IMG/VR virus record: IMGVR_UViG_3300044638_004201
Coordinates: 1 to 64,000 of that record
DNA length: 64,000 bases
Reading direction: 5' to 3' (one strand)
Source of the DNA: a virus
Below the pieces are notes generated by a model. That model had not been told where the DNA came from. It saw only the letters and a program-made list of their open reading frames with translations, and ran no database searches. The position numbers and the translations under genes were made by a program. Shown here piece by piece: positions 11,544-28,159 of the stretch (within the stretch, counting starts at the first letter, position 1; each line of letters opens with the position of its first letter).

Positions 11544-11680
11544 GTAATGATGTGGCTTGGCAATCAACTCTCACAGAAGAAATGATTGCCCACCTGAGCG
11601 AACAAGAAATAAGTTTGCTTATCAACTCCCTCAATGAGTCAGTAGAAGAAATCTGCAACATCTACGAAGTCAAGGGATAA
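11540..11680 (+). CDS. 46-aa acidic hypothetical protein
   Basis: ATGA overlap with GGAG RBS; not in track. Confidence 0.6.
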   Translation: MSNDVAWQSTLTEEMIAHLSEQEISLLINSLNESVEEICNIYEVKG

Positions 11681-11689
11681 AAAGTAAAA

Positions 11690-11890
11690 ATGGGAAAACT
11701 TATTTCAATAGAACCAACCACAGACAACTCAACTACCTACTTTGCTCTGGACGGAAATTATGGCGAAGCGCAAGGCATGGTTGTCATTGACACGACCAAA
11801 TGGTCTGAGGACGATTGGACTCAGATTGACGAAGCAGGAGACTCAGACAGGGCGCAGGTTGCTCTTGATTTGACAAACAAATACGCTTAG
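11690..11890 (+). CDS. Hypothetical acidic protein
   Basis: ORF; start embedded in motif A. Confidence 0.65.
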   Translation: MGKLISIEPTTDNSTTYFALDGNYGEAQGMVVIDTTKWSEDDWTQIDEAGDSDRAQVALDLTNKYA

Positions 11891-11930
11891 TGTATTGTAA
11901 TTCTTACACCTACTAGAAAGGGGAAACCAA

Positions 11931-12290
11931 GTGGGAGACAGATTCGTAGTTGGATTTCAGGATAAGCCTGAAAACCCAATCCTCTATCTTTACTCACATT
12001 GGGGTGGCGAAGCACAAGAAAAAATCTTGGCTGAGGCACTCAACAAATCACAAGGTCGCTGGAACGATTCAGATTATGGAACTCGCATAGTCGTATCACA
12101 AATCATTGGCGATAGTTGGAAAGACAATCTAGGATTCGGTCTTTCTGTCAATAACTTCGCTATGCCTGACTACGACACAATTCAAGTCGTAGAGTGGCAC
12201 TCTCAATCAGTATCCACACGCCAAGCCTCTGCGCCTAGCGTAGAACTAGAAAACACACCCTTTGAGCATTACTGCCTAGAAAGGGTATAA
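11931..12290 (+). CDS. Conserved phage hypothetical protein
   Basis: MGDR...LYLYSHWGG...RWND.DY.TRI; own promoter and RBS. Confidence 0.75.
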   Translation: MGDRFVVGFQDKPENPILYLYSHWGGEAQEKILAEALNKSQGRWNDSDYGTRIVVSQIIGDSWKDNLGFGLSVNNFAMPDYDTIQVVEWHSQSVSTRQASAPSVELENTPFEHYCLERV

Positions 12291-12390
12291 GACACGCCAT
12301 AAGTGGGGGGCAACCCAAACTTGACAAAAGCCCCCCACCTATGGAATACTTCGTAATAGCAAGACCAACACTAGACAAGGAGAAATACAA

Positions 12391-12846
12391 ATGTTGGACA
12401 AAGAAAAGAAGGTTCAAGGTATAGCAATCTATGCCGAGTTCCGTAAGCCCGGTGAGACTATGCAAATAGTTATCACACCTGACGCCTACACGACTTCAGG
12501 AAGTCTTATTCCTATGACTATGGTTCGTAGAATTGTAACTAAAATTACGCCAAAGAAACAATGGAAAATTACTTCTTTCAGAGATAACCTCAGCGAAATG
12601 GTTTCTAAAGGTGAATTGGTCGCAGATAGCGACAAGGAAACTTTCACAGAGACTCGTATGCGCTACGCAACTTCCTACTTTGACTTAGTAATAAATCAAG
12701 GTTGGGAACTAGAAAAAAAGCCAATCTTGCTAGAGACTTCTCGCCACGACGCAGATGATTTAGCAAAAGGCAAAACACCTAATAAATTACTTTACAGGGC
12801 GCACATCTCTAGGAAAGCACTTGGCTTCCCTGAGTTGTCAGCGTAA
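12391..12846 (+). CDS. Hypothetical protein upstream of MoxR
   Basis: Own promoter and AAGGAG RBS. Confidence 0.7.
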   Translation: MLDKEKKVQGIAIYAEFRKPGETMQIVITPDAYTTSGSLIPMTMVRRIVTKITPKKQWKITSFRDNLSEMVSKGELVADSDKETFTETRMRYATSYFDLVINQGWELEKKPILLETSRHDADDLAKGKTPNKLLYRAHISRKALGFPELSA

Positions 12847-12863
12847 GAAAAGGGGAAAATAAA

Positions 12864-13919
12864 ATGGAAACTATGAAAGAGCGTTATGCTTCACTTAGTC
12901 CAAATCTCACACCTACATTGTGGGAAATGATTATTGAAGTTGCCACACAGGGAGTAAATGAAAATGCTTCACTTACACTCAACGCAAGCGTTGCCCCACA
13001 GGGTCGCTATGTTGAAAGAGCGATTGGTTCAGAGCGTGCGCCAAGAAACTCCAAACTGAAAATGGAACTTCCAAATGTTGAAGGACTTATTGGTGCGGAA
13101 ACTTACCTGCGTCCAAATGGTTCTGCCTACCACGCTCGTATGTGGGGAGAACACAAAGATGTGGAAGCCCTACGCAAAGCACGAGAAGCAACAACTCAAT
13201 CTGTTCTTACAGGTGTTGGTTCTCCAATGTTCCCACTTCTTTATGGTGCGCCGGGGTGCGGAAAAACTGCGCTAGTTGAAGCGTCTTATGGAAATGAAGT
13301 TATTACTCTTATGGGTAATGGCGACATTGAAGCCTCTGACCTAATTGGTTCTTATGTCCAAACTCCAAGTGGAAACTTTGAGTGGATTGACGGCGGACTA
13401 ATTCGGGCTATGGAAAATGGTTGGGTTTATTTCATTGACGAAATTGGTCTGATTGACCCAAAGGTTCTCGCACTTGTTTATGGTGCTATGGACGGACGCC
13501 GAGAAATTGTTATCACTACAAACCCTGAGAGAGGTGTTGTCAAGGCACACGAAAACTTCTTCGTAGTTGCAGCGACAAATCCAAATGCTCCCGGAGTTCG
13601 TCTAAGTGAAGCGTTAGTATCTCGCTTTACTGTTCAGGCAGAAATGACAACTGATTGGGCACTTGCTCGTAAGTTAGGTGTGCCAACACTTTTGGTAACT
13701 TCTGCTCAAAATCTTTATCGCAAACAACTTGCTAGAGAAGGTGTTTCTTGGTCTCCACAAATGCGAGAACTTCTTGCGTTTAGAGACATAGCAATAACTT
13801 TCGGAACTTCGTTTGCGCTTTCCAACCTGATTGCTTCTGCCCCTGAAAACGATAGGGCAGTTGTCGCAGATGTTTTGTCTCGTGCCTTCGGGGAAGAGAT
13901 GAAACCAGCCAAAATCTAA
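12864..13919 (+). CDS. MoxR-family AAA+ ATPase (CbbQ/NorQ/CobS-like)
   Basis: Walker A GAPGCGKT, DLIG, Walker B YFIDEI, AATNP, ALVSRF. Confidence 0.9.
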   Translation: METMKERYASLSPNLTPTLWEMIIEVATQGVNENASLTLNASVAPQGRYVERAIGSERAPRNSKLKMELPNVEGLIGAETYLRPNGSAYHARMWGEHKDVEALRKAREATTQSVLTGVGSPMFPLLYGAPGCGKTALVEASYGNEVITLMGNGDIEASDLIGSYVQTPSGNFEWIDGGLIRAMENGWVYFIDEIGLIDPKVLALVYGAMDGRREIVITTNPERGVVKAHENFFVVAATNPNAPGVRLSEALVSRFTVQAEMTTDWALARKLGVPTLLVTSAQNLYRKQLAREGVSWSPQMRELLAFRDIAITFGTSFALSNLIASAPENDRAVVADVLSRAFGEEMKPAKI

Positions 13920-14002
13920 GTATCCCTGTCCTTAGGTTTTGGTTCGGGGAGTTGGGGATTGAGCGTGGTTCATTGGGTGTCCTTCGCTCTCCCCAACACC
14001 CC
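13909..14002 (+). ncRNA. Double hairpin with pyrimidine-rich anti-SD-like loops
   Basis: Stems 13909-13942 (loop TATCCCTGTC) and 13946-14002 (loop ...TCATTGGGTGTCCTT). Confidence 0.45.
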
Positions 14003-14083
14003 ACCTTTAGATTTGACAAGGAAAAGCAAAAAGTGTAGTATCTAATTGTTAGGTCGGAAGCCTGACAGAAAAGGGGAAATAAA

Positions 14084-15862
14084 ATGGCTCATCTAAAAAT
14101 GGGTGAAACCAAAGCACAGGCTACTCCTGTTGAGTGGCTCAAAGTTGGTAGAGACATTGGCTACATGGCTAACAAGTGGTCTCTACGAGATGATTTAGTT
14201 GCGTATGTTGGTCCGGGTGCTGGTGGTCCGGCACCTGCGTGCTACTCACCTACACAAGCAGAAGTTGAAGTAAATGTTGATGTTGCGTTTGCTAAAGGTA
14301 TTACACCTGAGGAAATTGGCGACATAACACTTCGCAAAACACAATACGAGTTTCCTAAGGCGACAGGTGCGATTATGCACGAAGCCTTCCACGCTCGCTT
14401 CTCACAATGGTCTATGCCTAAGGCGTATGAGGAATTAGAGAAGGACGAATACAACGCACTTATTCTTTTAGAGGAAAGTCGCATTGAGTATCAAGGTGTC
14501 AAGTCTCTATCTATCGCTCGTCCTTTCCTTCGTGCTTGCGCTATGGAAATTGTTATTGGCGATACAAAAGAAGGTATGGAAAACGAAACACAAACACAAT
14601 CGCTAACTAATTTAGTTGGTCTTGTCTTTGCTCGCATTGACGCAGGTATCTTAGATGAACACGAAGTCTTTGCGATTACAGAAATGATTACAGACCAACT
14701 TGGTGTAGATGTTGTTGAGCAACTACGAACAATCGCTCGTTCAGCACAAATGCACGACAACCACAAAGACGCCACAGAACTTTATCCACTAGCAAAAGAG
14801 TGGGCACGAATTGTTCGTGAAACTGCTAAAGAGCGTGGAGATGAACAAAAGCCTGAAGGTAACAAAGGTATTCCTTCTGAAATCATGGAAGCAATCATGG
14901 AAGCGTTGTCTGAGGCTTCAGATGAAGTAATGGCAAACAACTTCTCCGACTTGGGCGACCAAGAGCAGGGTGAGGACATGAGAGAGGAAGTCAAGGCAAA
15001 AGCCTCTGACGCACAAGAGCAAAACGAAAATCGTGAAATTGCTAATCAAGTGTTCTCTAAATCTTCAGGGCCGGGGCAATCAAAAACCAATAGCAAGTTG
15101 ATTGAACAACGCCAACCAACAAGTGAAGAACTATCTGCCTCTGTTCGTATTGGACAATGGTTAGAGAAAGCAAAGTATCGTGAGCGAGATGAACTACAAA
15201 TCGCAAGCGTGCTTCCACCCGGACGCCTTCGCACTAGAGCAATCGTCCAAAATGCAGCCTTGAAATCTCGTGGAGTAAATCAGCGAGTAGAGCCTTTCCG
15301 TAGAACTGTTCGCAAACACACAGACGACCCAACACTCAATGTTGGAATTATGGTCGACATTTCAGGTTCAATGGGAAGTGCTATGAACCCTATGGCTACA
15401 ACTGCGTGGGTAATGGCTAACGCAGTAAATCGTATTCAAGGAAACTGCGCTATGGTCTATTACGGAAATGATGTGTTCCCAACTCTAAAGGTTGGACAAA
15501 AACTTTCTGAAGTAAATGTTTATTCTGCTTCGGACGGAACTGAGAAGTTTAGTAAAGCGTTCTCAGCATTGGAAGGCGCACTTAACTTACTTCACGGAAA
15601 TGGCGCAAAGTTGTTGGTAATTGTTTCGGACGGAGAATACACTTCAGATGAAACAAGAAATGCCAAAGAGATTGTTGCCAAATGTAAAGAGGCAGGTGTC
15701 GCAATTTTATGGCTACCTTTTGATAATGGCAGAAGTGCGAAAGCGATTGGTGGAGATTATGCCGAAGTTGTTTTGGACATAAGCCGACCTGCGGAAGCCT
15801 CTGAAATTATTGGTCGTTCAGCAGAAAAAGTAATGACGAGAATTGGGCAACGAGTGGCGTAA
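14084..15862 (+). CDS. vWA-domain protein with N-terminal HExxH metallopeptidase-like domain (CobT-like MoxR partner)
   Basis: HEAFH, LEESRIE, MIDAS DISGSM, IVSDG. Confidence 0.88.
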   Translation: MAHLKMGETKAQATPVEWLKVGRDIGYMANKWSLRDDLVAYVGPGAGGPAPACYSPTQAEVEVNVDVAFAKGITPEEIGDITLRKTQYEFPKATGAIMHEAFHARFSQWSMPKAYEELEKDEYNALILLEESRIEYQGVKSLSIARPFLRACAMEIVIGDTKEGMENETQTQSLTNLVGLVFARIDAGILDEHEVFAITEMITDQLGVDVVEQLRTIARSAQMHDNHKDATELYPLAKEWARIVRETAKERGDEQKPEGNKGIPSEIMEAIMEALSEASDEVMANNFSDLGDQEQGEDMREEVKAKASDAQEQNENREIANQVFSKSSGPGQSKTNSKLIEQRQPTSEELSASVRIGQWLEKAKYRERDELQIASVLPPGRLRTRAIVQNAALKSRGVNQRVEPFRRTVRKHTDDPTLNVGIMVDISGSMGSAMNPMATTAWVMANAVNRIQGNCAMVYYGNDVFPTLKVGQKLSEVNVYSASDGTEKFSKAFSALEGALNLLHGNGAKLLVIVSDGEYTSDETRNAKEIVAKCKEAGVAILWLPFDNGRSAKAIGGDYAEVVLDISRPAEASEIIGRSAEKVMTRIGQRVA

Positions 15863-15883
15863 GTCGTTCTTGCTCAAAAAGAA

Positions 15884-15983
15884 CTCTCGGTTCGGGTGCG
15901 TCCTTCCAACGCATTTCCCACCAAGAACCGAACCGAGAGCCTATGTAGGTGAAGCCCCACCCCCTTTTCGGGGCTTCACTTAC
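15884..15983 (+). ncRNA. Double hairpin with anti-SD loops
   Basis: 12-bp stem CTCTCGGTTCGG/CCGAACCGAGAG with inner TCCTTCC and TTTCCC; 14-bp stem with loop ACCCCCTTTTC. Confidence 0.55.
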
Positions 15984-16014
15984 TCAACCAAAAAGTAAAA
16001 AGGGGAGAGACAAA

Positions 16015-16428
16015 ATGACATACGAAATTAAATACAACGCTATTGACCCTGACCCAGCGCAACAAGACGCAATCTTTTATACGGGCATGGGTTTAATTGC
16101 TACTGTGATTTGGGAAGGTTTCCATGTTGATGTTTATTGCGACGGAGAAACGAGAGTAAATCTTTTAGACGCACCACAAGGGCAAGTTGTTTCTAGTCTC
16201 TACAATCCTTCAGATTTTATTGAAGCAGGGCTGGATACAGATGACGCCTTGCGAGTGGCTAACGACCAAGAACTTCTTGATTGGGTAAATAACTCTTGGT
16301 TTGATTTGTATTGCGAAGGCGAACACCTTGATGCGGTATCTCACGAACTCAATGAAGCCCTAGCCATAGCGACTAACTATGTGAAGCAAGAGTGGCAAAA
16401 CTCTGAAGAACTTGACAAAGCGTTCTAA
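16015..16428 (+). CDS. Hypothetical acidic protein
   Basis: Start after AAAAGGGGAG; WVNNSWFD motif. Confidence 0.7.
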   Translation: MTYEIKYNAIDPDPAQQDAIFYTGMGLIATVIWEGFHVDVYCDGETRVNLLDAPQGQVVSSLYNPSDFIEAGLDTDDALRVANDQELLDWVNNSWFDLYCEGEHLDAVSHELNEALAIATNYVKQEWQNSEELDKAF

Positions 16429-16471
16429 ATATGATTTACTAAGCAAAGACTAGGAAAGGGGAAAAAGTAAA

Positions 16472-17005
16472 ATGCACACTTGTCATTTACTGCTCATTGA
16501 AGCAGAGGACGCAGAAGAAGCAAAGGCAAAGGTTCAATCAGCGATTGAGCCTGAGGAAGGAAACTATCCGACTTGGTCTGATTGGCACGGCGGATTTGAT
16601 GAAGGACTTGCTGGACGCTGGTCAGGTTTGTTTGAGGGCTGGGAAGAAAACAGAGATGTTCTTCAATACACCGAGAACAAGGTTCTTGCTGACGACATCA
16701 TCAAACAATTTGTTGGTTATCGTTTAGAAGAAATGAAAAGCCTTCTAAGTCAGATTGAAACTGCTGGGGACTTTGATTTCAATACTTATGTAAAAGCCTA
16801 CGACCCATACAAGCAAGAGTTCAATGACGCAGGTATGAACCTTTGGCGGGCACAGAGCCTTGTAAAGATACTCAATAACGATTGGTGTCCTTACACATAC
16901 ATTTACGACATACAAGACTATACGGCGAACCTAGAGTATTTCAAGGCACGGCTGGAAACCGCACCTGAAAAACAATTCATTGTTCCTGTTGATTTTCACT
17001 ACTAA
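16472..17005 (+). CDS. Conserved phage hypothetical protein
   Basis: MHxxHL, WSDW..G...GRWSG and C-terminal VDFH motifs. Confidence 0.75.
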   Translation: MHTCHLLLIEAEDAEEAKAKVQSAIEPEEGNYPTWSDWHGGFDEGLAGRWSGLFEGWEENRDVLQYTENKVLADDIIKQFVGYRLEEMKSLLSQIETAGDFDFNTYVKAYDPYKQEFNDAGMNLWRAQSLVKILNNDWCPYTYIYDIQDYTANLEYFKARLETAPEKQFIVPVDFHY

Positions 17006-17021
17006 TAGAAACGGATAAAAA

Positions 17022-17162
17022 ATGGAAACCTGTAAGCATTGTGGCTGGGAAGTAAAACAAGATTTTGGCGTATGGATTGACGCTTGGGAACACCCTGTTT
17101 GTTTTTGGGTAGGAGATGAGCCACGCCAACACGAACCAATAAAAAAGTTTGCACACGCATAA
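17022..17162 (+). CDS. 46-aa CxxC protein
   Basis: METCKHCGW...HEP; not in track. Confidence 0.55.
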   Translation: METCKHCGWEVKQDFGVWIDAWEHPVCFWVGDEPRQHEPIKKFAHA

Positions 17163-17182
17163 CGGATAAGGAAAAAGTAAAA

Positions 17183-17431
17183 ATGAAAGTAAAAAATCTG
17201 ATTGAACAATTACAGGCATACACACCTGATACTGAACTGATTGTTGCTTACTGGGATAAAGAAACAGTAGAAGGCTACGCCTCTGGCTGGGGCGAACAAG
17301 ATAGGTTCGTGCTTACGGACGACCAATGGCTTGATGTTGTTGATAAGTATGATGACGGAGAGTGGCATTGGCAATCCTCTGCTGCACAAGATTTTACTGA
17401 CATGGCTAGAGATGTTGTTGCTAGTGAGTAA
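17183..17431 (+). CDS. Hypothetical protein, paralog of 9483..9740
   Basis: Shared motif pattern. Confidence 0.75.
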   Translation: MKVKNLIEQLQAYTPDTELIVAYWDKETVEGYASGWGEQDRFVLTDDQWLDVVDKYDDGEWHWQSSAAQDFTDMARDVVASE

Positions 17432-17588
17432 GACTTGGAAGGCTACCTTCGTATCCCACTTCGGAACTGAACTAGACGCTGATACCAAAAGAGAAGCAGA
17501 GACTAAAGCCCTTGCTTGGTTGCAGAACGAATACGGACACGACCTTGCTCGTGCCACAGAGTTTGATGTTGAAGTTGTTGAGGAGTAA
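17424..17588 (+). CDS. Hypothetical protein
   Basis: Probable GTG start overlapping the upstream stop. Confidence 0.55.
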   Translation: MSKTWKATFVSHFGTELDADTKREAETKALAWLQNEYGHDLARATEFDVEVVEE

Positions 17589-17645
17589 TCTCTGCAAAGG
17601 CAAAAAGTAAAAACTCACCAAAATCGCTAGTCACGAAAGGGAACT

Positions 17646-17801
17646 ATGGACAACTTGGAGATGTATGCAAATGCCATGACTTGGTGGAACTCAAAGACCC
17701 CTGAGCAGAAACTAAAGATTGTGGGAGTAGAAACTTTGGACAAATGGGTTGAAGGGATAGTCCGAAAGGAGTATCTCGCCCCTGCCGAAAGTGTGGTCTA
17801 A
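17646..17801 (+). CDS. 51-aa hypothetical protein
   Basis: GAAAGGG RBS; not in track. Confidence 0.55.
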   Translation: MDNLEMYANAMTWWNSKTPEQKLKIVGVETLDKWVEGIVRKEYLAPAESVV

Positions 17802-17922
17802 ATCACATAAGATTTATGCCCTTTTGATTTGACAAGCGTAAGCCTACTCGTGTAAAGTCTGTTTTGTTAGGTCGGATACCTAATGAAGGACAAAATGACA
17901 AACGAAAGAGGGAATTGGGCTT

Positions 17923-18309
17923 ATGCCTAGAACCGAAATCGCACAAGAGGTAGTAGTCAAAACTACTATCGCAGTAGCAACAAAGGAAGTAGCACTTGAC
18001 GCTACAAACGCTGGCGCACTTATCGCAGAACTCAATGCGACAAAAGACGCAATCAAAACTGCTCAGGACAAGGCGAAAGCCCTTCAGGCAGACATTTATC
18101 CTCTACTTGGATACACACTCGTAAATGGTGAGTGGGTTGGCGAAGCAGAGGTTGGCACAATCGCTGGTAATGTTGTTGTGAAGGTCGCAACAATCAACGC
18201 AACAAAGTTTGAGAAGGATAGACTTCTCAACGACAAGCCTGAACTCGCACCTGTGTTCGAGGCATACACAATCCCAGCCCCTTACAAGGCTATGAAAACA
18301 GGGAAGTAA
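17923..18309 (+). CDS. Hypothetical protein (coiled coil plus beta domain)
   Basis: Own promoter and terminator. Confidence 0.75.
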   Translation: MPRTEIAQEVVVKTTIAVATKEVALDATNAGALIAELNATKDAIKTAQDKAKALQADIYPLLGYTLVNGEWVGEAEVGTIAGNVVVKVATINATKFEKDRLLNDKPELAPVFEAYTIPAPYKAMKTGK

Positions 18310-18320
18310 TTTCCAAAGGA

Positions 18321-18352
18321 AAAGCCCCTCACCTTCGGGTGGGGGGTTTTTC
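18321..18352 (+). terminator. Intrinsic terminator
   Basis: GCCCCTCACC-TTCG-GGTGGGGGGT-TTTT. Confidence 0.85.
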
Positions 18353-18454
18353 TATAAAGATGTTTGGCAAAAAGTAAAAATGGAAGTTAATCAAATCTTC
18401 GAGGGAAACTACGAACAACTTGCGTAGAAAGGGAAAACCTGATAGGGTGCATTT

Positions 18455-19669
18455 ATGAAACCAACAGACGCACTAGACATACGCGCTAACTTCAAGAGTA
18501 AGTGTGGCGATGCTCGATGGAAAGAAATAGTAAAACAAAACATTATGATTTCTTCAGGGGCAAAGTTTCTTGCAGGAAACTTGGTCTCTATTCACCATAA
18601 GGACGAGAACACAACACTAAGAGAAAAAGCAATAGATGTTTATGTTCAGGACATTATTCGTGCTGGTTCTTCAGGAGAGTGCTTCTTCGTCAAAGATGAA
18701 ATGACTGACCTTGTTCTCTTTGCTTCAGAGAAGTTAGATGAAACAGATTTATTTGACCCAACCCTTGCGCCGACAGATAAAGGGTTTGCTTACTTTGAGA
18801 AGCCTATCCCACTTACAGATGTTCGAGGTAGAACACTTTTCATAAATGTTATTACTTGGGAAAAACTATTCAACAAAACAACTGGTGAGTTTCAAGTAAC
18901 TATGTCTTGCTGGAACGATACTGCAAGAACACCTGATGATGTTGCAGTTGAGATTATGTCTAACCCCGACAAAGACTATCAAGAGTTTGTAAGACAACTG
19001 GGTCGCTTCCAATGGATAAAGAGCCAAACTGTAAAGTCTGGAACTATTGTTGGTGCTAAGCAAATAGAACTAACAGAAGAACAGATGCAAGAAATTAGAG
19101 CAATCACTTTCCAAAATAGCCACGGGTTAGACAAGAGCGTGGAAGATGTTGATGGAACTAAAAAACTAATAGATAAAGTAGTCAAGGACAACACACACAG
19201 AACAAAAGAAATTGGCGCACAAATACAAAGCAACTTGGGTTGGGATAAACTTACAGATGAGCAATGGGAAGAATACAGAAAAAGAGTAGTTACAAACCCT
19301 ACAAACTTGGTGCGGATACTTCACGCTTACTGGCTACTTATGTCGCAGACGATTGTTGAAAAAGCAAAAGAAACTGGCGATAGAACACAACGCAGAAGAT
19401 TAGAACGCGAAAGTTGCCCAACAGAGGTTGTTGTTATTCAATTCCGCAAGCGTAAGTATTACAATGAAAAAGGCGAAGAAACTGAGGACAGTAAAAAGAT
19501 AGATTGGTCGCACAGGTGGTTGGTTGGTGGGCATTGGCGTTGGCAACCATACAAAGACCCTGCGAGTGGTGGGGAAATCAAAAAGCGTATTTGGATTAGC
19601 CCTTATGTGAAAGGTCCGGAAGATAAACCTCTAGTGATGAAGGAAAGGGTTTATGTTCTCGCTAAATAA
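18455..19669 (+). CDS. Conserved phage protein with C-terminal GHWRxQ...WIxPYxKG motif (leaderless)
   Basis: WSHRWLVGGHWRWQPY...IWISPYVKGP; TTGCGT-17-TAGGGT promoter 6 nt before ATG. Confidence 0.8.
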   Translation: MKPTDALDIRANFKSKCGDARWKEIVKQNIMISSGAKFLAGNLVSIHHKDENTTLREKAIDVYVQDIIRAGSSGECFFVKDEMTDLVLFASEKLDETDLFDPTLAPTDKGFAYFEKPIPLTDVRGRTLFINVITWEKLFNKTTGEFQVTMSCWNDTARTPDDVAVEIMSNPDKDYQEFVRQLGRFQWIKSQTVKSGTIVGAKQIELTEEQMQEIRAITFQNSHGLDKSVEDVDGTKKLIDKVVKDNTHRTKEIGAQIQSNLGWDKLTDEQWEEYRKRVVTNPTNLVRILHAYWLLMSQTIVEKAKETGDRTQRRRLERESCPTEVVVIQFRKRKYYNEKGEETEDSKKIDWSHRWLVGGHWRWQPYKDPASGGEIKKRIWISPYVKGPEDKPLVMKERVYVLAK

Positions 19670-19737
19670 TTAAATAGATACTTGACAAAACTATCAAAGT
19701 ATGATTTACTTAGGTATAAGGAAAGGGGGTTAGTCAA

Positions 19738-19992
19738 ATGACTAACGAAGTTATAAGTTTAGAGATTGACGCAGAAGAAGGCGCATTTATTAATATGGGC
19801 TTGGCTCTGCTACTTGAGATGTTGAGTGAGGACATTGACAGGGTGGCGAACTTAAAGAAAGACCACCACCTAGAAAAGTTGATGTTCCTTATGGATACAA
19901 AAATGGGCGTAGGTAGTTTGTGGCGCAAGGTTCTAGTTACCTGTGGTGCTGACCCTGAGGACATAGCAGAACACCTAAGAGAGCAGAACTAA
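19738..19992 (+). CDS. Hypothetical protein
   Basis: Own promoter and RBS. Confidence 0.7.
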   Translation: MTNEVISLEIDAEEGAFINMGLALLLEMLSEDIDRVANLKKDHHLEKLMFLMDTKMGVGSLWRKVLVTCGADPEDIAEHLREQN

Positions 19993-19994
19993 TA

Positions 19995-20165
19995 ATGGTA
20001 ATCAAAGAAGTAGAGTTGGAATACACGCCAAACACTCTTGCTAAGTTGGTAAGAGATAACTACGGAAAAAATGCCGTTGAGTATTTGATTGGCAGACTAA
20101 CTAGCGTCATAGACGAAAGACAACTAAAAGTTTTGATTGACTATGAAAGAGGTAAAAATGGATAG
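19995..20165 (+). CDS. 56-aa hypothetical protein
   Basis: Fills the operon gap; not in track. Confidence 0.55.
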   Translation: MVIKEVELEYTPNTLAKLVRDNYGKNAVEYLIGRLTSVIDERQLKVLIDYERGKNG

Positions 20166-20391
20166 CATACTTCTCAGTAGAACTGTGATGTTTGTTGGCG
20201 ATTACTTTACGCTAATGACCACTATTGTCTTAGACGAAAAACTACGCAACGAAAATGAAAGCGACAATGACTTTGCGGTTCGTGTTGCCTCTATTTTTAT
20301 GAACGAGTATTACGGATTTGATGTTGAGGCAGTATCTAATAGCATTGGTGTTGTTGATGAAAATGGAGATGAGGTAGAGGAAGATGTCTAA
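20158..20391 (+). CDS. Hypothetical acidic protein
   Basis: Overlapping operon ORF. Confidence 0.65.
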   Translation: MDSILLSRTVMFVGDYFTLMTTIVLDEKLRNENESDNDFAVRVASIFMNEYYGFDVEAVSNSIGVVDENGDEVEEDV

Positions 20392-20728
20392 CCTTGACTT
20401 TCTAGTATCTATTACTGAAGCCATTGAAACTGGCAAAGTAGATAATCAACTGGACACGATTGCTAAAGCAATTCAAGAGCGAAAGAACTTGTTGCGAACA
20501 GGAGTATCCATAGACGACTTCTCCATTGGGGATAGGGTTGTTATCAACGAAAGATGTGGCACAAAGTATTTGCGTGGTGAAGTAGCGACCATTGTTGGTA
20601 TTCGCAGAACCAAGATAACAATTCAGTTTGATAACCCTTCGGGCAGATTTGTTCGCAAGAACTCAGACGGAACTATCTACTCCTCAGATGTGGTTGTGCC
20701 GATTGAGATTGTTGATAGGAAAAAGTAA
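20384..20728 (+). CDS. SH3/KOW-like fold protein
   Basis: FSIGDRVVI...YL.GEVATIVGIRRTKITIQFD. Confidence 0.65.
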   Translation: MSNLDFLVSITEAIETGKVDNQLDTIAKAIQERKNLLRTGVSIDDFSIGDRVVINERCGTKYLRGEVATIVGIRRTKITIQFDNPSGRFVRKNSDGTIYSSDVVVPIEIVDRKK

Positions 20729-20759
20729 AAAACCTAAAAGTATGTTAAAGTGGTAACTC

Positions 20760-20862
20760 CTTAGGTGTGGGAGTTATCCCCCTTTCACCCACCCTGAGAT
20801 GAGAGTGGCATACCCTTCCACTCCGCTAACCTCTTTCTCCCTGTCTGAGACTGGGGTTAGTG
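20760..20862 (+). ncRNA. Triple hairpin with anti-SD loops
   Basis: Loops ATCCCCCTTTC, CATACCCTT and CCCTGTC; TGnTAAAGT extended -10 upstream. Confidence 0.5.
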
Positions 20863-20947
20863 TCTAGAACTACTTGACTTCTGTGCGGTTTATGTTATGT
20901 TATAAAATCTAAAATCACTTCTTACAGACCCCATTACTATTTTGTGT

Positions 20948-21193
20948 ATGGAAATTGTCTCTAAGGATTATCACCCAAATGGTTCGGCTGCACCTTTTAT
21001 GATTGCGATTGTTGATGACCCTGCGGACGGGGACACTAAACTGGTAATAATGTTTGATGAAACTGACTATGTTGCGGTTTTATCACTTGACTCTCTACAA
21101 AGAGACGAGGACATTTCAGCAAGAAACAATGGATACCACGGGGATAGATACGAAAGATTGCGTTTAGACTTGTGGGACGGGTTTGCTGGCTAG
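20948..21193 (+). CDS. Hypothetical protein
   Basis: ORF downstream of a -10 element. Confidence 0.6.
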   Translation: MEIVSKDYHPNGSAAPFMIAIVDDPADGDTKLVIMFDETDYVAVLSLDSLQRDEDISARNNGYHGDRYERLRLDLWDGFAG

Positions 21194-21230
21194 GCAAAAA
21201 GTAAAAACTTACGAGGGTTGAGGGTGCGCT

Positions 21231-21797
21231 GTGACTACGATTGCTGCTGTTCAGGGTGAAAACTGGGCTGTCGTTGGTTATGACTCACGAGTAACTGAAG
21301 AAAACGAAAAGATTTACACACTTCCAAAAGATAATGGGAAGTTATTTAAGAACGGGGCATACCTTATTGGGGTAGCCGGCGACATGAGGGCTATCAACTT
21401 ATTATCATTTGTGTTCAAGCCGCCTGCAATAACACCAACAACTTATGGAGTTAAACTCGACAAGTTTATGACTGCCATTTTTATACCTGAACTGAAGAAA
21501 TGCTTTGAGGACAACTCATACTCAAAAGATGGCGACCAAGATAGCCAAGTGATGGTTCTTATAAATGGAACTGTCTATGAGATTGGCAACGACTATTCGT
21601 GGGCACGGGACGAGAGTGGGGTTTATGCCATTGGTTCTGGAAGTGCTTACGCTCTGGGTGCTTTGCTGGGGACTCTAGAAACAAGAAAGAGGACTCTGGC
21701 AACTGCCAAGACGCTAATCAGACAAGCATTGACTATCTCTGCCAAACTTGACCCTAACACAAGTGCGCCTATCTATATAAATGTGCAGCATTTTTAA
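21231..21797 (+). CDS. Ntn-hydrolase, HslV/proteasome beta-subunit-like protease
   Basis: N-terminal TTIAA, DSRVT, K, GVAGD, AIGSGS.YALGAL. Confidence 0.85.
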   Translation: MTTIAAVQGENWAVVGYDSRVTEENEKIYTLPKDNGKLFKNGAYLIGVAGDMRAINLLSFVFKPPAITPTTYGVKLDKFMTAIFIPELKKCFEDNSYSKDGDQDSQVMVLINGTVYEIGNDYSWARDESGVYAIGSGSAYALGALLGTLETRKRTLATAKTLIRQALTISAKLDPNTSAPIYINVQHF

Positions 21798-22024
21798 TAC
21801 CTAGTTAAGGCAAACTACAAACAACTTCTGTGCTGTGAGGACCGGCGTGCCGTAGATTTTTACTTTTTGCTGATGCACTGCTGCCGCTGCTGGTGACCTT
21901 CTGGAATTGTTGGTAGTCGTTAATACCTGGTTGAACAACCTATGAAACGATTTGCGTTAGCCCTTGTAAAAATAATTTGCGACACTACTTGACTTGCCTA
22001 TCCTAAAATGCTATCCTTCAGTTA

Positions 22025-22101
22025 TTCGGTAGGGGGAAGTCGCTGGTCACCTGAACGCCTATAACTTGCAAGGGGCGGAAACAATACGACTCCCTACCGA
22101 A
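22025..22101 (+). ncRNA. Structured 5' leader RNA (copy 2)
   Basis: TTCGGTAGGG..GTCG / CGAC.CCCTACCGAA closing stem at the predicted TSS. Confidence 0.5.
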
Positions 22102-22117
22102 CCTAAAAGGGGGAAAA

Positions 22118-22348
22118 ATGGATTCAGTAGAGTTTGACGAGTTTGGCAGAGTTTATCTTCGCCCAACTTATTACGCGGGTCGTGGTATTGCGGGGCCGGG
22201 TAGAACACCAACAAAAATAAACACAAAGATTCGTTTCTGCGTTATCTGCGAAAAGAAACTTTCTATTTACAACACCGACAAAGATAATGTTTGCTTTAGC
22301 GATACCTGCGAAAAAAAGTTTCAAGACTCAAAAAAGAATAAGAAATAA
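22118..22348 (+). CDS. Zinc-finger hypothetical protein
   Basis: CVICEKKLSIYN....C. Confidence 0.65.
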   Translation: MDSVEFDEFGRVYLRPTYYAGRGIAGPGRTPTKINTKIRFCVICEKKLSIYNTDKDNVCFSDTCEKKFQDSKKNKK

Positions 22349-22412
22349 TACTTGACTTTACTTTGGTAAAGTGTTACACTTGCTACAACAACAACTTACA
22401 GGGGGTAAGTAA

Positions 22413-23091
22413 ATGTCCGACATGATTCTAAAGCACCTAGCACTCTATGCGAGTGGCAAGGTTGTCCCTATTTGCGGTGAGTGCGAGAAAGCACTTACAC
22501 CCAATGAAATTGGGTATGGACACGATTGTGAGGTAGCGTAATGAACACTATCTCAATGAGTTATCACTTGCGTGGAAACTTTTATCCACCACTACCACTT
22601 GACTATGCAGAACCTGCTATCAAGGCTTGGGAGTTTTATCAAGAAGAAAACTATGATGCGGTAGTCGTATTACCTGCCGACATAGTGCCTCACCCTGCTA
22701 CTGCCGTAAAGACAGATGCTGGTTGGGAAATAACTGCTAGCGAACTTGTAAGAATACTTAGATTGGATAGGTAATGAGCACACTAACAGAAGTATTTGAT
22801 ACTTTGGTAAAAGAAAGAGTTAGCGAGGCTAAGGCTATTGCCTTTGATACTTGCCACAAGATTTATCTGCTTATGGACAATGAACAGGTAGAACTAATGA
22901 GAACTTATGGCTACGACCCACTTATTACTAAAGAAGATGCCACACCTGATGTAATGCTTGCGACACTGCAAGAGTGGTATGAAGATTCTTGCGGGCTTAG
23001 ATTTATTGAAGCGGTTAGCACTAATCACGAAAATCCTAATGCTGGATTCGAAACCCTAATTGGTCAAGGAGATTTTGCTGAAGACGACTAA
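22413..23091 (+). CDS. Three coupled small genes (22413-22541, 22541-22774, 22774-23091)
   Basis: TAATG overlaps; own promoter at 22352 and terminator at 23105-23131. Confidence 0.65.
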
Positions 23092-23275
23092 CAAACAATT
23101 AGAAATGCCCCGCCTAGTGCGGGGTATTTTTATTTAATTTGCAGTGGGACGCTGTGGCAAAAAGTAAAAACCTGCAATAGCGCCCAGTGCATTTGCACAC
23201 TACAAACAATTTGAGAAGTCTAAAATCCCAGAAACCCTGACCCAAATGATGTGAAGACAAAACGGACATTTTGCC

Positions 23276-23291
23276 TGTGAAATAGGTCACA
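23276..23291. promoter_or_regulatory. CRP/GlxR-like site TGTGA-N6-TCACA
   Basis: Exact consensus; related sites at 17792, 29482, 29943 and 30632. Confidence 0.55.
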
Positions 23292-23367
23292 AAAATAATC
23301 CATTGAGAAATGCCTACCTCAATCGTCATAAGAGGTAGAGGGAAAAACAGAAAGGAGGAAAGCCTCA

Positions 23368-23994
23368 ATGGAAAAGACACTACAACAGAAACTAGACGAA
23401 CTAAGTAAAGCCTTAGAACCTGTCCTGTGGGATTTGCTAGATGAAGTGGAGAAAGACTAAGAGTCATTGACTTTTGGCTTACTTAATCGTCGTTAATAAG
23501 TAGAGGGATAAATAATCCCAAGAGGAGGAAGAAATGCTAAAACTGAAACAAACAAGAAAGGCAAGAAAGCAATACGAGCCAGAAGATGAGTTAGTGCTAG
23601 TAATGGACACACCTGACCTAGACGCTATGGAACACGAAGCCTTTAGGCTCAACACGGAAGTTTGGCTAGATGAAGTCTTAGGTTTGGGTGGGGGTGAATA
23701 AAAGGTATTTGACTTTTGTTTAGAGATGTAGTAAGATTAACTTATCAAAGAAGGAAGGGGGTGAAATAAATGATTTCTTTCGGAGATTTTGTAAATTGGG
23801 TAGAGCCTAATGGCAACTACGAGAACTACTGTATTCAATGCGGACGCAAGACAGGTAAGAACGCTTACCTAGTAAATGTATCCACAGGTGGTGCGGTGCT
23901 ACACCCAGCCAGCGAAGCAGACTCACAGGGGTTCTGGAACATAGGCAGAGAGTGTGCCAAAGAGTTTGATAAAGCGGTTCTGGTCAAGAACTAA
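23368..23994 (+). CDS. Three small genes (23368-23460, 23534-23701, 23770-23994)
   Basis: Each has a strong RBS; terminator at 24013-24043. Confidence 0.6.
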
Positions 23995-24215
23995 AGCCCA
24001 ACAGATTTTAGAGAAGCCCCCGTTGATGCGGGGGTTTTTTCTTTGGCAACTATAAACAACTTGGTCAAATCGAGGGCCCGGTGGTGCATTAGCAAAAAGT
24101 AAAAACTCTCCTTCAGATCCGCTGCAAGTAAAAACAACTTGGGTTGTTTGCTGAAGGGACTTGACAAATGTCAGGAAGGTTTGATAGTATGTGGATACCT
24201 AAGAAGGGGGAACTT

Positions 24216-24449
24216 ATGTTTAGAGATTGGCTATTCGGTGATTTCAAATACGCATACCGAACAACGAAGGTAGAGAAGATTATCTATAAGAAAATCGCTT
24301 TAGTAGTTATTGCGGTTCTGTTCATTATGATAATGATTGACGCCTCTGCTCTAGGTCTTGTTCTGTTCTTTGGTCTTGGCTGGTATGCCAAGCAAAAGTA
24401 TGACTTGAAAAAGAAAGTAGTGCGTAAGCGCAAGAAAAAAGTTTCATAA
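24216..24449 (+). CDS. Small membrane protein with basic tail
   Basis: Two hydrophobic segments; KKKVVRKRKKK. Confidence 0.65.
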   Translation: MFRDWLFGDFKYAYRTTKVEKIIYKKIALVVIAVLFIMIMIDASALGLVLFFGLGWYAKQKYDLKKKVVRKRKKKVS

Positions 24450-24508
24450 GCCGATTTGACAAATGTCAGGAAGGTATGATAAACTCTCCATAGAAAGGGG
24501 AAATACAA

Positions 24509-25042
24509 ATGAACACTTCTCCACAAGATGAAGCACTAGAACTACTAGAAACAAAAATAGCACCACGCTCTTATACGATTGACTATCCAAAAGAATTGTG
24601 GTCTGAGTTATTGCCCGGCTTATGGCAGGGTGGAACTGATGATGACGACATTTATGACCAACTAGCAACGCCAGCAATTACAAAAAAGAACTTTGATTTT
24701 GTGATTACAGCCTACGCTTGGGCTAATCCTGTTGATTGGTTTGTCAAGGAAATCCGTTTCGGATTTTATGACAGCGACATGGCAGACTTTGACCCAAATG
24801 ATTTACAAGGAATTGTTCGTATGGCTCACGCAGAGTGGAAGCGAGGACAGCGTGTCCTTATTCGTTGCCAAGCAGGTATGAACCGAAGTGGTCTAATTAT
24901 GGCTCTAGTCCTTATTCGTGAGGGCTACACGCCACAAGAAGCGATTGACTTGATACGGGCTAAGAGAAGCAAGCACGCCTTGTTCAATGGTCGCTTTGAG
25001 AAGTGGCTGAGTGAAGTTGATGTTTCGGCGTGGAGAAACTAA
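24509..25042 (+). CDS. Dual-specificity/tyrosine protein phosphatase
   Basis: CX5R loop VLIRCQAGMNRSG, upstream FYD, AIDLIRAKR. Confidence 0.88.
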   Translation: MNTSPQDEALELLETKIAPRSYTIDYPKELWSELLPGLWQGGTDDDDIYDQLATPAITKKNFDFVITAYAWANPVDWFVKEIRFGFYDSDMADFDPNDLQGIVRMAHAEWKRGQRVLIRCQAGMNRSGLIMALVLIREGYTPQEAIDLIRAKRSKHALFNGRFEKWLSEVDVSAWRN

Positions 25043-25139
25043 GACACGCCGAAAGTCAGGAAGGTTTGACAAAAGGTCAGGAAGGCTGTAATCTTAGGGT
25101 ATTGACTAGGAAAGTCAATAGAAAAGGGAGAAAGACAAA

Positions 25140-26073
25140 ATGAAAACAGAAGCAAAGTTTATTAGACGCAGAATTGCCGTTGGACTTATTTTGCTTGCTT
25201 TGTTCGCTTGGGCTCTTGACGCTACTACACCTGAGATGTGTAAAGTGCCGACAGAACAAATGAATCAATTTTGTTTAGACCTGTTGTATCCATAATAACT
25301 AAAGGGGGTAGTAATAATGTCAGGTTGGAGAACTAAAAAAGCAAATGCTTTAGCAAAAAGAGAAGCCTCTTTTATCAAAAGCAGAGAAAGACTTAGCACA
25401 CCTCGTGCGGAGTTTTTACTAAAGTTTGCTTTTATGAGTGATGAGCAGTTTGAGAAATGGTCTGAACTAAAGACAAGTGCCGAAGCAAGAGCCTTTATGG
25501 AAGCACTACCAATGCCTCAAATAAAAACAAATGAAGTGTTTATCAAACTAGACAAAGAAGAAAGATAGGGAAAAAGTAAAAATGAAGAAATGTATAAATG
25601 CTACTTGCGAAAGCACGGAGTTAGTTTATTCAGGCGTAGATGCGTTCTTGCTTGGTGGTATTGAAACAGAGAAGTGGTGCTACACCTGCGCCAATGCGAT
25701 TGCTTTATCTAACAGGAAGGAAGAATCAAATGTTGCTTGATAATGGAACAATGTTCGCAATAATTATTGCGCTTGCGGGTTCATGCTTTGTTATGGTTGT
25801 TGGTATCAGAGCGCAAGGTAAGTTGATACGGGAGAACAACAGACTTCGTAAAGAACTAACTGAACTTCACTACGAGAAGGTGAAGGGAGGAATCTAATGG
25901 AAGAAACTAATGTAATGCTTGACCCAATGGATTGCGGTCTTGCCTGTCAGTTTGAGTGGATAGAAGTATCATCAAACTTCTTCAGCGTTGCTGTCTATAC
26001 ACCTGCGTTGATAGTTGGTGTGCTTTCTTATTTCATCTACAAAGCGATAAAAAAGAAGAAACGAAAGGCGTAA
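25140..26073 (+). CDS. Run of five small genes (25140-25295, 25317-25568, 25582-25740, 25730-25897, 25897-26073), several membrane or Cys-containing
   Basis: Manual translation; RBS and overlaps. Confidence 0.55.
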
Positions 26074-26080
26074 TTCAGAA

Positions 26081-26284
26081 GTGGCAAAAAGTAAAAAGAT
26101 AGAGATTGATGCTGCAAAGTTATACAACTCTGGTCTTGCCATAGATGATGTGGCTGAAGAACTTGGTGTCTGTTATAGGACAGCGAGGAAAGCGATTCGT
26201 AGTAGTGGAGTTGTTTTGAGAGACCCTTCAGCCCGTCTCAGAGGTAGAACTAGCCCTAAAAGAAAGAAGGCAGGAAATGAATAA
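26081..26284 (+). CDS. Helix-turn-helix DNA-binding protein
   Basis: LYNSGLAIDDVAEELGVCYRTARKAIRSSGVVLR. Confidence 0.8.
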   Translation: MAKSKKIEIDAAKLYNSGLAIDDVAEELGVCYRTARKAIRSSGVVLRDPSARLRGRTSPKRKKAGNE

Positions 26285-26470
26285 TCTCAATGTAGTTTGG
26301 TCTGCGGTAGTTGCCAGCGTGGCATCTGCGCTCGCTGTTGTAATGGCTATCTGGGGAGACTCAGATGTGTCCTTAGCCCTCGGCGCTGTGGCGATTACTT
26401 CGGCTGTTCTGTCCATAAGGGAGAAACCTTAGGACTTGATTTCCTGTCAATAGTATGACATAATGAAGTT

Positions 26471-26525
26471 GGACTAGAGGCTCTCTGACACAAACCTTCC
26501 CCCGTCAGAGGGTCTCTATTCTTTT
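26471..26525 (+). ncRNA. Stand-alone hairpin sRNA with C-rich loop
   Basis: TTGATT-17-CATAAT promoter, 15-bp stem, loop ACAAACCTTCCCCC, U-tract; no ORF. Confidence 0.55.
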
Positions 26526-26585
26526 GGCGTGTCGCTTGACAAAGAACTTGGACTATTGTATTGTTGTCTATGAAAGGGGAAGAAA

Positions 26586-26702
26586 ATGACAAAAACCAAG
26601 AAAAAACAAATCATTTACATAGCCTGTTGGAAGTGCGGTAGCCAGTTTTCCCTGTATGAAAACGACTACAACCACGGGGCTTGTTGCGGAAAGTGCCTGT
26701 AA
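26586..26702 (+). CDS. 38-aa zinc-ribbon peptide
   Basis: CWKC...CGKC; own promoter and RBS; not in track. Confidence 0.55.
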   Translation: MTKTKKKQIIYIACWKCGSQFSLYENDYNHGACCGKCL

Positions 26703-26886
26703 AAGGCTACCTTCCTGACTTTCCTGTGATAGAGTATTACCTATGAACGACATACGACCTAACGACAAACTTAGGAAAGGTAAGTAATACCTGTCTCCCC
26801 AATGAGGGTGGCTCGGTTGGCTTAGTCAGCAACCCAACTGCGGTTTATACAACGCAGAGTCCATGTCCCCAAACAAAGGAAAATCA

Positions 26887-27519
26887 ATGCAGAAAACTAA
26901 GAGCAGAGTTGTCGAACAAATCTTGAGCGTATTGCTTTCGGTTGGAGTTATTTCGACTTTCTCTACCTATGTTCAAGCGTCCAACGCAGACGAACAAAAA
27001 GTAAAAACTGTTGTCGAAGTGCAGCAGCAACAGCAAGAAAAGAAAACCTACGAACAACTTATCGAGGCTGAAATCGTCGCCCATAAGGAAAAAATCAAGG
27101 CTCTACAACTCCAGAGGTTTGCTGACCAGCGAACCACCTTCACGGACGAAGAACTCGCTCAACTGCTCTATGCCGTTGGGTTTGAGGGCAAAGCCCTAAA
27201 GGTCGCTTGGGCTGTTGTGAAGAAGGAGTCTAATGGTCGCCCTATTGCCTTCAATGGCAATACAAGAACAGGCGACTCTTCATACGGAATCTTCCAGATT
27301 AATATGATTGGCGGACTAGGAGTAGACCGCCGAGAAAAGTTTGACCTCAAATCAAATGCGGAACTATTCAACCCAGTAGTCAATGCTGAGATTGCTTATC
27401 ACATGAGTAATGGTGGCGAAAAATGGGAGGCTTGGAAAGTTGGTAGCGGGTATAATGGTGTAGACCAAGAACGCTATGAATCTTGGCTCAAGAAGTTTCC
27501 CGAAGGAGTAACCCCTTGA
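26887..27519 (+). CDS. Membrane-anchored lytic transglycosylase (SLT/lysozyme-like)
   Basis: N-terminal TM, coiled coil, KKESNG, SYGIFQIN, LFNPVVNA, WEAW. Confidence 0.85.
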   Translation: MQKTKSRVVEQILSVLLSVGVISTFSTYVQASNADEQKVKTVVEVQQQQQEKKTYEQLIEAEIVAHKEKIKALQLQRFADQRTTFTDEELAQLLYAVGFEGKALKVAWAVVKKESNGRPIAFNGNTRTGDSSYGIFQINMIGGLGVDRREKFDLKSNAELFNPVVNAEIAYHMSNGGEKWEAWKVGSGYNGVDQERYESWLKKFPEGVTP

Positions 27520-27995: not shown

Positions 27996-28007
27996 GTATT
28001 AACAAAA

Positions 28008-28145: not shown

Positions 28146-28159
28146 TCCAGAACCAGAAC

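Follow-up and report, generated by a model that had tools for sequence, protein, structure and literature searches.

Conserved hairpin loops after early genes of an uncultured lake phage co-vary with leader and Shine-Dalgarno sequences of the same predicted transcription units

To our knowledge, pairing of the 5' with the 3' untranslated region (UTR) of one bacterial mRNA is known from a few single-gene cases only. In phages P1 and P7, the c4 antisense RNA belongs to the same operon as its target and has hairpin loops that pair with the target's ribosome-binding region; it sits upstream of that target, is processed out and serves as a trans-acting immunity factor. In Staphylococcus aureus, a UCCCCUG motif in the 3'UTR of the icaR mRNA pairs with the Shine-Dalgarno (SD) sequence of the same mRNA, in cis or in trans, resulting in a translation block and RNase III cleavage (PMC3868564), and pairing between the 5'- and 3'-UTR of the Bacillus subtilis hbs mRNA was reported as protective (PMC5737220). 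For actinobacteria, the published account of the 6C small RNA (sRNA) describes hairpins with C-rich loops that pair with G-rich mRNA regions, no chaperone being involved (PMC6486639). We here describe four hairpin elements (elements 1 to 4) in the early gene region of an uncultured freshwater phage, probably of actinobacteria, found in the first 64 kb (the window) of the 73.8-kb IMG/VR virus record IMGVR_UViG_3300044638_004201, for which completeness is estimated at ~55%. Loops of these elements are complementary to SD and leader sequences, and comparison with related phages suggests that such anti-SD or anti-leader loops probably pair with the phage's own early mRNAs, mostly with that of their own transcription unit (TU), in cis or in trans, as in icaR.

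The region between 10 and 27 kb of the window is a dense run of small + strand genes with sigma-70-type promoters between them, of the form TTGACA-N17-TAGTAT, and most genes in it share an extended SD, (A)GAAAGGGG(A), with an A-rich spacer behind it. An earlier note, made from the sequence alone, had taken the four elements for a family of sRNAs with strong + strand stems and SD-complementary loops. All four indeed fold strongly, with minimum free energies (MFEs) and z-scores against dinucleotide shuffles of −49 kcal/mol and −5.9 for element 1 (13905-14010, +), −55 kcal/mol and −7.0 for element 2 (15862-15990, +), −42.8 kcal/mol and −2.3 for element 3 (20740-20870, +), and −26.2 kcal/mol and −3.6 for element 4 (26465-26530, +). 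The quoted loops are present in the sequence (CCCTGTC at 13924-13930 and ~20840, TGTCCTT at 13978-13984, TCCTTCC at 15901-15907, ACCCCCTTTTC at 15959-15969, ATCCCCCTTTC at ~20776-20786 and CCTTCCCCC at ~26495-26503), and so are the ribosome-binding site (RBS) words to which they had been compared (GAAAAGGGG at 12847 and 14068, GAAAGGGGG at 19721, GAAGGACAA at 17885, and, upstream of a gene on the minus strand with its start at 28825, AAGGACA).

The part of this picture that did not hold is that of stand-alone sRNA genes. Elements 1-3 begin at or just after a stop codon, with no promoter-like site in front, and elements 1 and 3 stop ~10 nt short of the −35 box of the promoter that follows. Because of this placement the elements are, as read from the sequence, predicted 3'UTR or intergenic parts of early mRNAs and not separate sRNA genes; the predicted layout has between one and three stable stem-loops that sit at a stop codon or shortly behind it, mostly with the next promoter immediately behind them. 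A consensus scan for intrinsic terminators (a G+C-rich stem plus a U-tract) flagged none of the hairpins of elements 1-3 (1a, 1b, 2a, 2b and 3a-3c), and only part of element 4 (26494-26513); the tails 3' of the hairpins of elements 1-3 read ACCTTTAG, TCAACCAA and GTGTCTAG.

Within the window, the 7-mer complements of nine loops match the RBS windows of 56 gene starts, as compared to 17.3 ± 5.8 for shuffled loops (0/500 shuffles reached 56). The complement-only control of this test also reached 48 gene starts, and the polarity of the matches is unproven within a single genome because the dominant SD context, GAAAGGGGAAA, is nearly identical when read backwards; an RNAduplex scan of each loop over the genome was not discriminating either. 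Comparative tests settle the polarity, since co-variation appears in them only in the antiparallel Watson-Crick orientation. These tests build on 33 related loci collected through the VWA protein (42-76% identity), from which 16 representative phages were taken for the main comparisons and one representative per clade for the co-variation tests (13 lineages for the VWA unit).

The VWA unit is transcribed, by prediction, from a promoter at 14013-14041 (+; TTGACA-17-TAGTAT, 10/12 consensus positions), whose TTGACA is kept at this position in relatives. A 5'UTR mini-hairpin with the loop TCGGAAG follows (14047-14065, +) and is also kept in relatives, and next to it stands the SD word GAAAAGGGG (14068-14076, +) of the VWA gene (14084-15862). 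Element 2 is placed after the stop codon of this gene, and the next gene follows hairpin 2b without a promoter and without a U-tract. Hairpin 2a (15884-15939, +) has a 12-bp outer stem, an internal loop with CCACCA, and an inner hairpin whose apical loop is TCCTTCC; hairpin 2b (15945-15983, +; −24.1 kcal/mol) has a 14-bp stem and the loop ACCCCCTTTTC, to which the SD word of the VWA gene is an exact 9-nt complement. The gene with the best-supported elements on its flanks, apart from this CobT-like VWA gene, is the upstream AAA_5 gene (12864-13919; MoxR/CobS-like ATPase); in Actinomycetia phage DSL-LC01 this gene pair is annotated as an AAA ATPase and a cobalamin biosynthesis protein.

Every lineage in the 33-locus set has a hairpin 3' of the VWA stop codon, with a differing stem and a pyrimidine loop of either the TCCTTCC or the CCCCTTTC type. 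The conservation of loops across relatives, on which the earlier proposal depended, was borne out: the elements keep their gene positions in ~30 relatives, and in these the loops are kept and the stems change yet still pair. In hairpin 2a, GTCCTTCC is invariant across 9 aligned relatives, and both the inner and the outer stem change with compensation. C-G, U-A and G-C exchanges at the same positions of the outer stem were read by eye from the alignment, and the compensatory pairs were counted in the inner stem, which was the only one recovered by MAFFT and RNAalifold (indels). The stems of the mini-hairpin likewise still pair in relatives (CAGG/CCTG, TTGGG/CCTAA, GTTGG/CCAAC and CTCG/CGAG, by eye), and its loop is complementary to the 2a apical loop over 5 nt in the window and over 7-8 nt in lineages L004, L008 and L010.

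Across the 16 phages, the loops 3' of the VWA gene pair better with their own 5'UTR (−12.2 kcal/mol) than with the VWA 5'UTRs of other phages (−9.4 kcal/mol; p = 1e-4). The mean longest complement was 8.69 nt for cognate and 6.73 nt for non-cognate combinations in the 13 lineages (p = 5e-5), and the identity, reverse and complement-only controls were not significant. Perfect complements of 9-13 nt occur in the window, in L015, L018, L026, L028 and L034, and in DSL-LC01; they include, as loop/target, CCCCCTTTTC/GAAAAGGGG (9 nt) in the window, TTCCGTTCCTTTC/GAAAGGAACGGAA (13 nt) in L028, TTTCCTTTCGTT/AACGAAAGGAAA (12 nt) in L026, GTCCTTCCGTCA/TGACGGAAGGAC (12 nt) in L034 and TCCTTCCAG/CTGGAAGGA (9 nt) in L015. 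Some further matches use G.U pairs, as in L012 (CGAAGGGG with CCCCUUUG). The target word is found once within the 21-kb locus in L028, L034, L015 and L018, and the own VWA SD is the best or tied-best match among ~35-58 SDs in 6/16 lineages, being the unique best in L018, L034 and L028. On the + strand of the 73.8-kb record, GAAAAGGGG occurs only at 14068 and at 12847, where it is the SD of the AAA gene; the 2b loop therefore has 9 nt to each of these two SDs, with overlapping 9-mers in several other early SDs and complement 7-mers in the RBS windows of 14 gene starts, and its duplexes with the AAA, VWA and 19738 SDs have z-scores of −2.0 to −3.3. The region covered by the complement is the SD or the SD-to-start spacer in most lineages, and extends up to the start codon in L028 and L034. 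These results, with loops conserved on drifting stems and co-variation restricted to the antiparallel orientation, are in line with selection on RNA-RNA pairing.

A second case is provided by the unit that precedes the VWA gene, made up of gene 12391-12846 and the AAA_5 ATPase gene. Its sigma-70-like promoter (12321-12350, +; TTGACA-18-AATACT, 10/12) has the −35 box in the loop of a further conserved-looking hairpin at 12297-12344. Relatives keep the whole arrangement of the AAA-VWA interval (hairpins 1a and 1b, promoter, small 5'UTR hairpin), with changed stems. Hairpin 1a (13905-13947, +), syntenic in relatives, has the end of the AAA gene as the 5' arm of its stem, final codons and stop codon (13917-13919) included, and the loop TATCCCTGTCC; hairpin 1b (13945-14002, +) has a long G/C-rich stem and a loop that includes TTGGGTGTCCTT, with a conserved TGGGTG core on changing stems. 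In relatives, the first gene of the unit has, in its leader or start region, a 7-9 nt complement to the 1b loop (ATGGGTGTC/GACACCCAT in L015, GTGTCCTTT/AAAGGACAC in L010, CTTGGGTG/CACCCAAG in L012, CATGGGTGT/ACACCCATG in L034), and the AAA 3' element matches the start region of gene 12391 over 7.78 nt in cognate and 6.07 nt in non-cognate combinations (p = 5e-5; pairing-geometry controls not significant). In 9-10 of 13 lineages, the 1a loop in turn is complementary over 7-8 nt to the SD of the AAA gene itself (pairs TCCCTGTC/GACAGGGA, TCCCTGTT/AACAGGGA, TTCCGTTC/GAACGGAA and TCGTCCTT/AAGGACGA), with 6.75 nt for cognate and 5.58 nt for non-cognate combinations (p = 0.0012; controls not significant). 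Since 1b matches gene 1 and 1a matches gene 2, this unit appears to have two addressed hairpins for its two cistrons. The AAA 3' element is also more stable on the + than on the − strand in 15/16 lineages, in agreement with a + strand RNA having G.U pairs.

The four-gene unit at 19738-20728 has a promoter-like TTGACA-17-TTTACT, a 5'UTR and the SD word GAAAGGGGG (19721-19729), together spanning 19682-19729 (+) in a layout that is conserved in relatives. At its other end, the loop of hairpin 3a (20760-20798, +), which includes ATCCCCCTTTC, is a 9-nt complement of this first SD, 1.06 kb upstream, and the + strand of the record has no second copy of GAAAGGGGG. A three-hairpin array is predicted in 9/9 orthologous regions, where 3a has differing stems and a CCCC(C)TTT(C) loop (9/9) and 3b (20803-20823, +; loop CATACCCTTCC in the window) has the loop consensus A(C/T)ACCC(C)TTC (9/9). 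Hairpin 3c (20824-20862, +), which has TCTTTCTCCCTGTCT across its internal and apical loops and is followed by a promoter at 20874-20901, shows compensatory changes in 6/13 aligned pairs. Its loop region is complementary to two SDs, that of gene 25140 (11 nt, perfect) and that of gene 20158 (9 nt), and also matches the leader of gene 12391; duplexes with the start regions of these three genes have z-scores of −3.7 to −4.2.

Within the same unit, gene 19995-20165 is missing from close-relative contigs of four RNA-library runs (at 19998-20173), with ~168-174 nt swapped for 5-11 other letters, a presence/absence polymorphism of one small early gene. The contigs from these metatranscriptome runs (X16-X19, over 10000-29999) are fragmentary Logan contigs of relatives at 90-99% identity that carry neither strand nor end information, with possible DNA carry-over, and were not used as evidence for transcription or transcript ends.

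Loops in the window also match SDs outside their own units. The major capsid gene has GGAAGGAC as its SD (50707-50714), an 8-nt complement of the 2a loop, and the 2a, 1b and 1a loops together tile GGAAGGACAG, the SD of this gene. The capsid RBS region (50690-50722; loci L035-L114) is strongly conserved in 80 relatives, reading ACTG(G/C)CC...GGAGGGACAG or GGAAGGACAG and then GTG or ATG, and is complementary to the invariant 2a loop GTCCTTCC, with one G.U pair in GGAGGGAC variants. A reading of the loops as RBSs of minus-strand micro-ORFs was rejected: on the minus strand, no start codon lies at RBS distance from GGAAGGAC (15900-15907).

How such pairing might act can be sketched from the positions of loops and targets. 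Once the 3' end has been transcribed, a loop would pair with the leader or the SD, either within one molecule or between molecules after processing has left stable hairpins. The single-stranded loops would have their targets in the 5'UTR, namely the extended SD word, the SD-to-start spacer, the loop of a 5'UTR hairpin or a 5'-proximal leader segment, and in the best-documented cases these targets would lie in the same TU. Pairing would then block 30S binding and possibly create a site for a double-strand RNase, so that an early mRNA would limit its own translation. We favour such self-limiting repression, given that the majority of targets span the SD or the spacer between SD and start. That + strand RNA carries the elements (with strand-fold support for one of them), that the pairing takes place in vivo, in cis or in trans, and that it represses, we infer from these comparisons.

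Several results weigh against this explanation. In the window itself, 1a and 1b match their own unit by only 4-5 nt (4 nt for 1a), the own-unit match of the relatives having been lost, and several loops match the SDs of other units as well as or better than their own, which would fit trans action or a mixed network. A naive test of own-unit complementarity across 132 promoter-delimited units of the 16 phages showed no excess (5.61 vs 5.68), and a comparison of 545 strong hairpin loops of the same phages with SD windows gave 42 loops with at least 8 nt, as compared to 30-59 in three control transforms, by a crude pipeline that missed known cases. For element 3, 338/720 permutations were as good as the cognate arrangement in a test where the SDs are too alike across lineages and one start was mis-set, and the strand test was ambiguous for the VWA 3' element and the element at 20760. 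Given the absence of an excess in the 132-unit test and the general hairpin scan, own-unit loop pairing would be a property of particular conserved units and no general rule. In the window, because 1a and 1b have lost their own-unit match and loops match other SDs, the sequences describe a predicted small network rather than strict self-targeting. Lastly, the target in DSL-LC01 and some other lineages is the 5'-proximal leader and not the SD, and the effect could for this reason be on stability instead of translation.

This last point bears on an alternative in which the same 5'-3' pairing closes the mRNA into a loop and protects its ends, both against 3' exonucleases and against RNases acting on the 5' end or the leader, so that expression goes up. 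In DSL-LC01 (a published genome), the loop of the VWA 3' hairpin is a 13-nt complement of the 5'-proximal leader of the same gene, with 8 nt to the SD; in L002, L007 and L008 the partner of the 1b loop is a leader segment close to the predicted 5' end; and hbs of B. subtilis sets a precedent (PMC5737220), in a different organism and with different sequences. We nevertheless regard stabilisation as unlikely, as the complements that cover the SD or its spacer in most lineages, and extend to the start codon in L028 and L034, should compete with 30S. About equally doubtful is a layer of anti-SD sRNAs acting in trans, in which hairpins accumulated from their own promoters or cut from 3'UTRs would titrate many early phage or host SDs and cause a global shut-off that spares other leaders. 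Complement 7-mers of 2b and 3a are indeed present in the RBS windows of 14-15 gene starts with the common GAAAGGGG SD, loop complements of 12-13 nt recur at many SDs in L026 and L022, the window has cross-unit matches such as 3c with the SD of gene 25140 (11 nt) and 2a with the capsid SD (8 nt), and a promoter-like site lies just upstream of element 4. Set against these are three of the four elements, which have no promoter of their own, and L028, L034, L015, L018 and DSL-LC01, in which the long complement is unique to the own gene. What supports the idea that these RNAs regulate by SD pairing is the co-variation of loops with phage SD and leader sequences; separate sRNA genes are not supported. 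Host mRNAs as targets, and host shut-off, found no support either, the best-supported targets in relatives being the 5'UTRs and SDs of the own unit; nor did the suggested sparing of leaderless transcripts, on which the analysis has no bearing.

It is improbable, in our view, that the elements do no more than terminate transcription or stabilise 3' ends between closely spaced early units, their loops having no pairing role. Their location, with a stop codon on one side and the next −35 box on the other, and the partial U-tract of element 4 would suit this explanation, and U-less 'I-shaped' terminators have been proposed for actinobacteria, although this is disputed. Terminators do not require, however, that loops be conserved while stems drift, nor that loops co-vary with 5'UTRs in the pairing orientation only, and the gene after hairpin 2b comes without a promoter and without a U-tract. 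A terminator or 3'-stabiliser role of the stems can coexist with pairing; alone it leaves the loops unexplained. Less probable still is that an SD-region word and its inverted copy act as a pair of sites through which a DNA-binding protein or recombinase brackets a gene module. In double-stranded DNA such a word and its reverse complement form one and the same site, and the loop of element 4 matches TCAGGAAGGTTTGA at ~24170 and 25056, overlapping two promoters. One copy, though, always lies in the unpaired loop of a stable, compensating hairpin and the other on an SD or leader, the AAA 3' element prefers the + strand in a G.U-dependent manner, and some matches rely on G.U pairs (such as CGAAGGGG/CCCCUUUG of L012). 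A DNA-level reading is therefore unlikely for elements 1-3, and deserves a look for element 4.

Element 4 (hairpin and U-rich tail, 26471-26532, +) had been credited with its own promoter and U-tract. It is a hairpin with a 15-bp stem and the loop ACAAACCTTCCCCC, 40 nt past a stop codon (26430-26432) and just before a promoter at 26536-26564; the proposed promoter of its own reaches only 9/12 of the consensus (TTGATT-17-CATAAT) and the U-tract is interrupted (CTCTATTCTTTTGG). The element is kept in L004, with an invariant ACCTTCCCCCG loop and stems that have changed but still pair. We found no convincing SD target for it. Its loop (CAAACCTTCC, 26489-26498) is an exact complement of the 10-nt core GGAAGGTTTG of a repeat at the promoters 24174 and 25060; this repeat, TCAGGAAGG(TTTGA), occurs at 24170-24184, 25056-25071 and 25078-25086, where it overlaps the −35 box or the spacer of two early promoters, and it may serve as an operator-like site at the DNA level and not as a target for RNA.

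Returning to pairing of early mRNAs with their own 3' hairpins, a more specific form of it may be entertained tentatively, in which some early operons carry at their 3' end an addressed array with one stem-loop per cistron, each loop directed against the initiation region of one gene of the same mRNA, as a protein-free cis timer that caps the rounds of translation. In the AAA unit 1b would address gene 1 and 1a gene 2, and in the VWA unit 2a would address the leader hairpin and 2b the SD. The finished transcript would fold back on its own ribosome-binding sites, and matches to other early SDs and to the capsid SD would be spill-over in trans.

The closest likeness among the known systems is that to icaR, which shares with the phage units a C-rich 3'UTR motif that is the complement of its own mRNA's G-rich SD (PMC3868564). 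As in icaR, a pyrimidine motif matches the own SD or leader (9-13 nt in the VWA unit, 9 nt for 3a); the counterpart of compensatory mutation is natural co-variation (p = 5e-5, 5e-5 and 0.0012). The position of the phage elements relative to stop codons and conserved promoters would fit a site downstream of the stop on the TU of the target, for TUs as predicted. The two differ in that the phage motif lies in a conserved hairpin loop, in several early units and sometimes with one hairpin per cistron, that loops of leader hairpins and 5'-proximal leader segments are targets as well, and that the support is phylogenetic co-variation in the phage and experiment in icaR; there is no sequence homology. 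With 6C (PMC6486639), the elements have in common hairpins with C-rich loops and the phylum of the phage's probable host. The phage elements, in contrast, are not stand-alone chromosomal genes, and their loops are mixed C/U words tailored to phage SDs. Kinship with 6C found no support: elements 1-3 lack a stand-alone gene layout, and searches of 13850-16050 and 20650-26650 with the Rfam models of 6C and C4 gave no match even at E<=10. The phage elements also differ from c4 in being 3'-terminal and multiple. Rfam as a whole, at the gathering score over the entire window and at E<=10 over the two element regions, gave no usable match, only chance-level ones to miRNA, leader and sar families.

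The portal, capsid, AAA-ATPase and VWA proteins point to a group of large uncultured lake phages, and DNA of the window is present in many lake-water metagenomes. DSL-LC01 is its nearest named relative (73% amino-acid identity in the portal and 46% in the VWA protein), followed in protein searches by phages of Microbacterium, Arthrobacter and Gordonia; megablast of 10 kb of the window against GenBank phages gave no match, and a search for tRNA and tmRNA genes found none. N4-like hairpin promoters, considered because of a 3136-aa protein, were rejected, the early region being full of sigma-70-type promoters; the only family match on this protein is a DNA-polymerase exonuclease domain. Elsewhere in the early region, a further conserved-looking hairpin at 25017-25059 holds in its loop the stop codon of a phosphatase gene (24509-25042). 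The exact 11-mer AAAAAGTAAAA has ~21 copies in the window between 6872 and 29585 (for example at 6872, 8080, 11679, 15990, 16462, 17172, 20720 and 25571), and 34 copies at <=1 mismatch, as compared to 5.7 ± 2.5 expected, nearly all of them on the coding strand of the early region. It often ends right at an SD-less ATG or includes the stop codon of the upstream gene, and in relatives it is also found just 3' of the VWA hairpins and at times inside hairpin loops. This word might be a start context without SD, a promoter specific to the phage or a site of processing.

The co-variation seen in more than 12 phage lineages provides sequence-level evidence for 5'-3' pairing in at least two conserved early units of abundant uncultured lake phages, and the layout of one hairpin per gene found in places adds a feature to the known 5'-3' pairing systems. 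If true, such pairing would give phages an RNA-only means to limit or time early protein synthesis, an alternative to T4 RegB or RegA. It would also make available short, portable and easily reprogrammed 3' modules for tuning translation, and would be a reason for annotators not to write off hairpins that follow genes as terminators.

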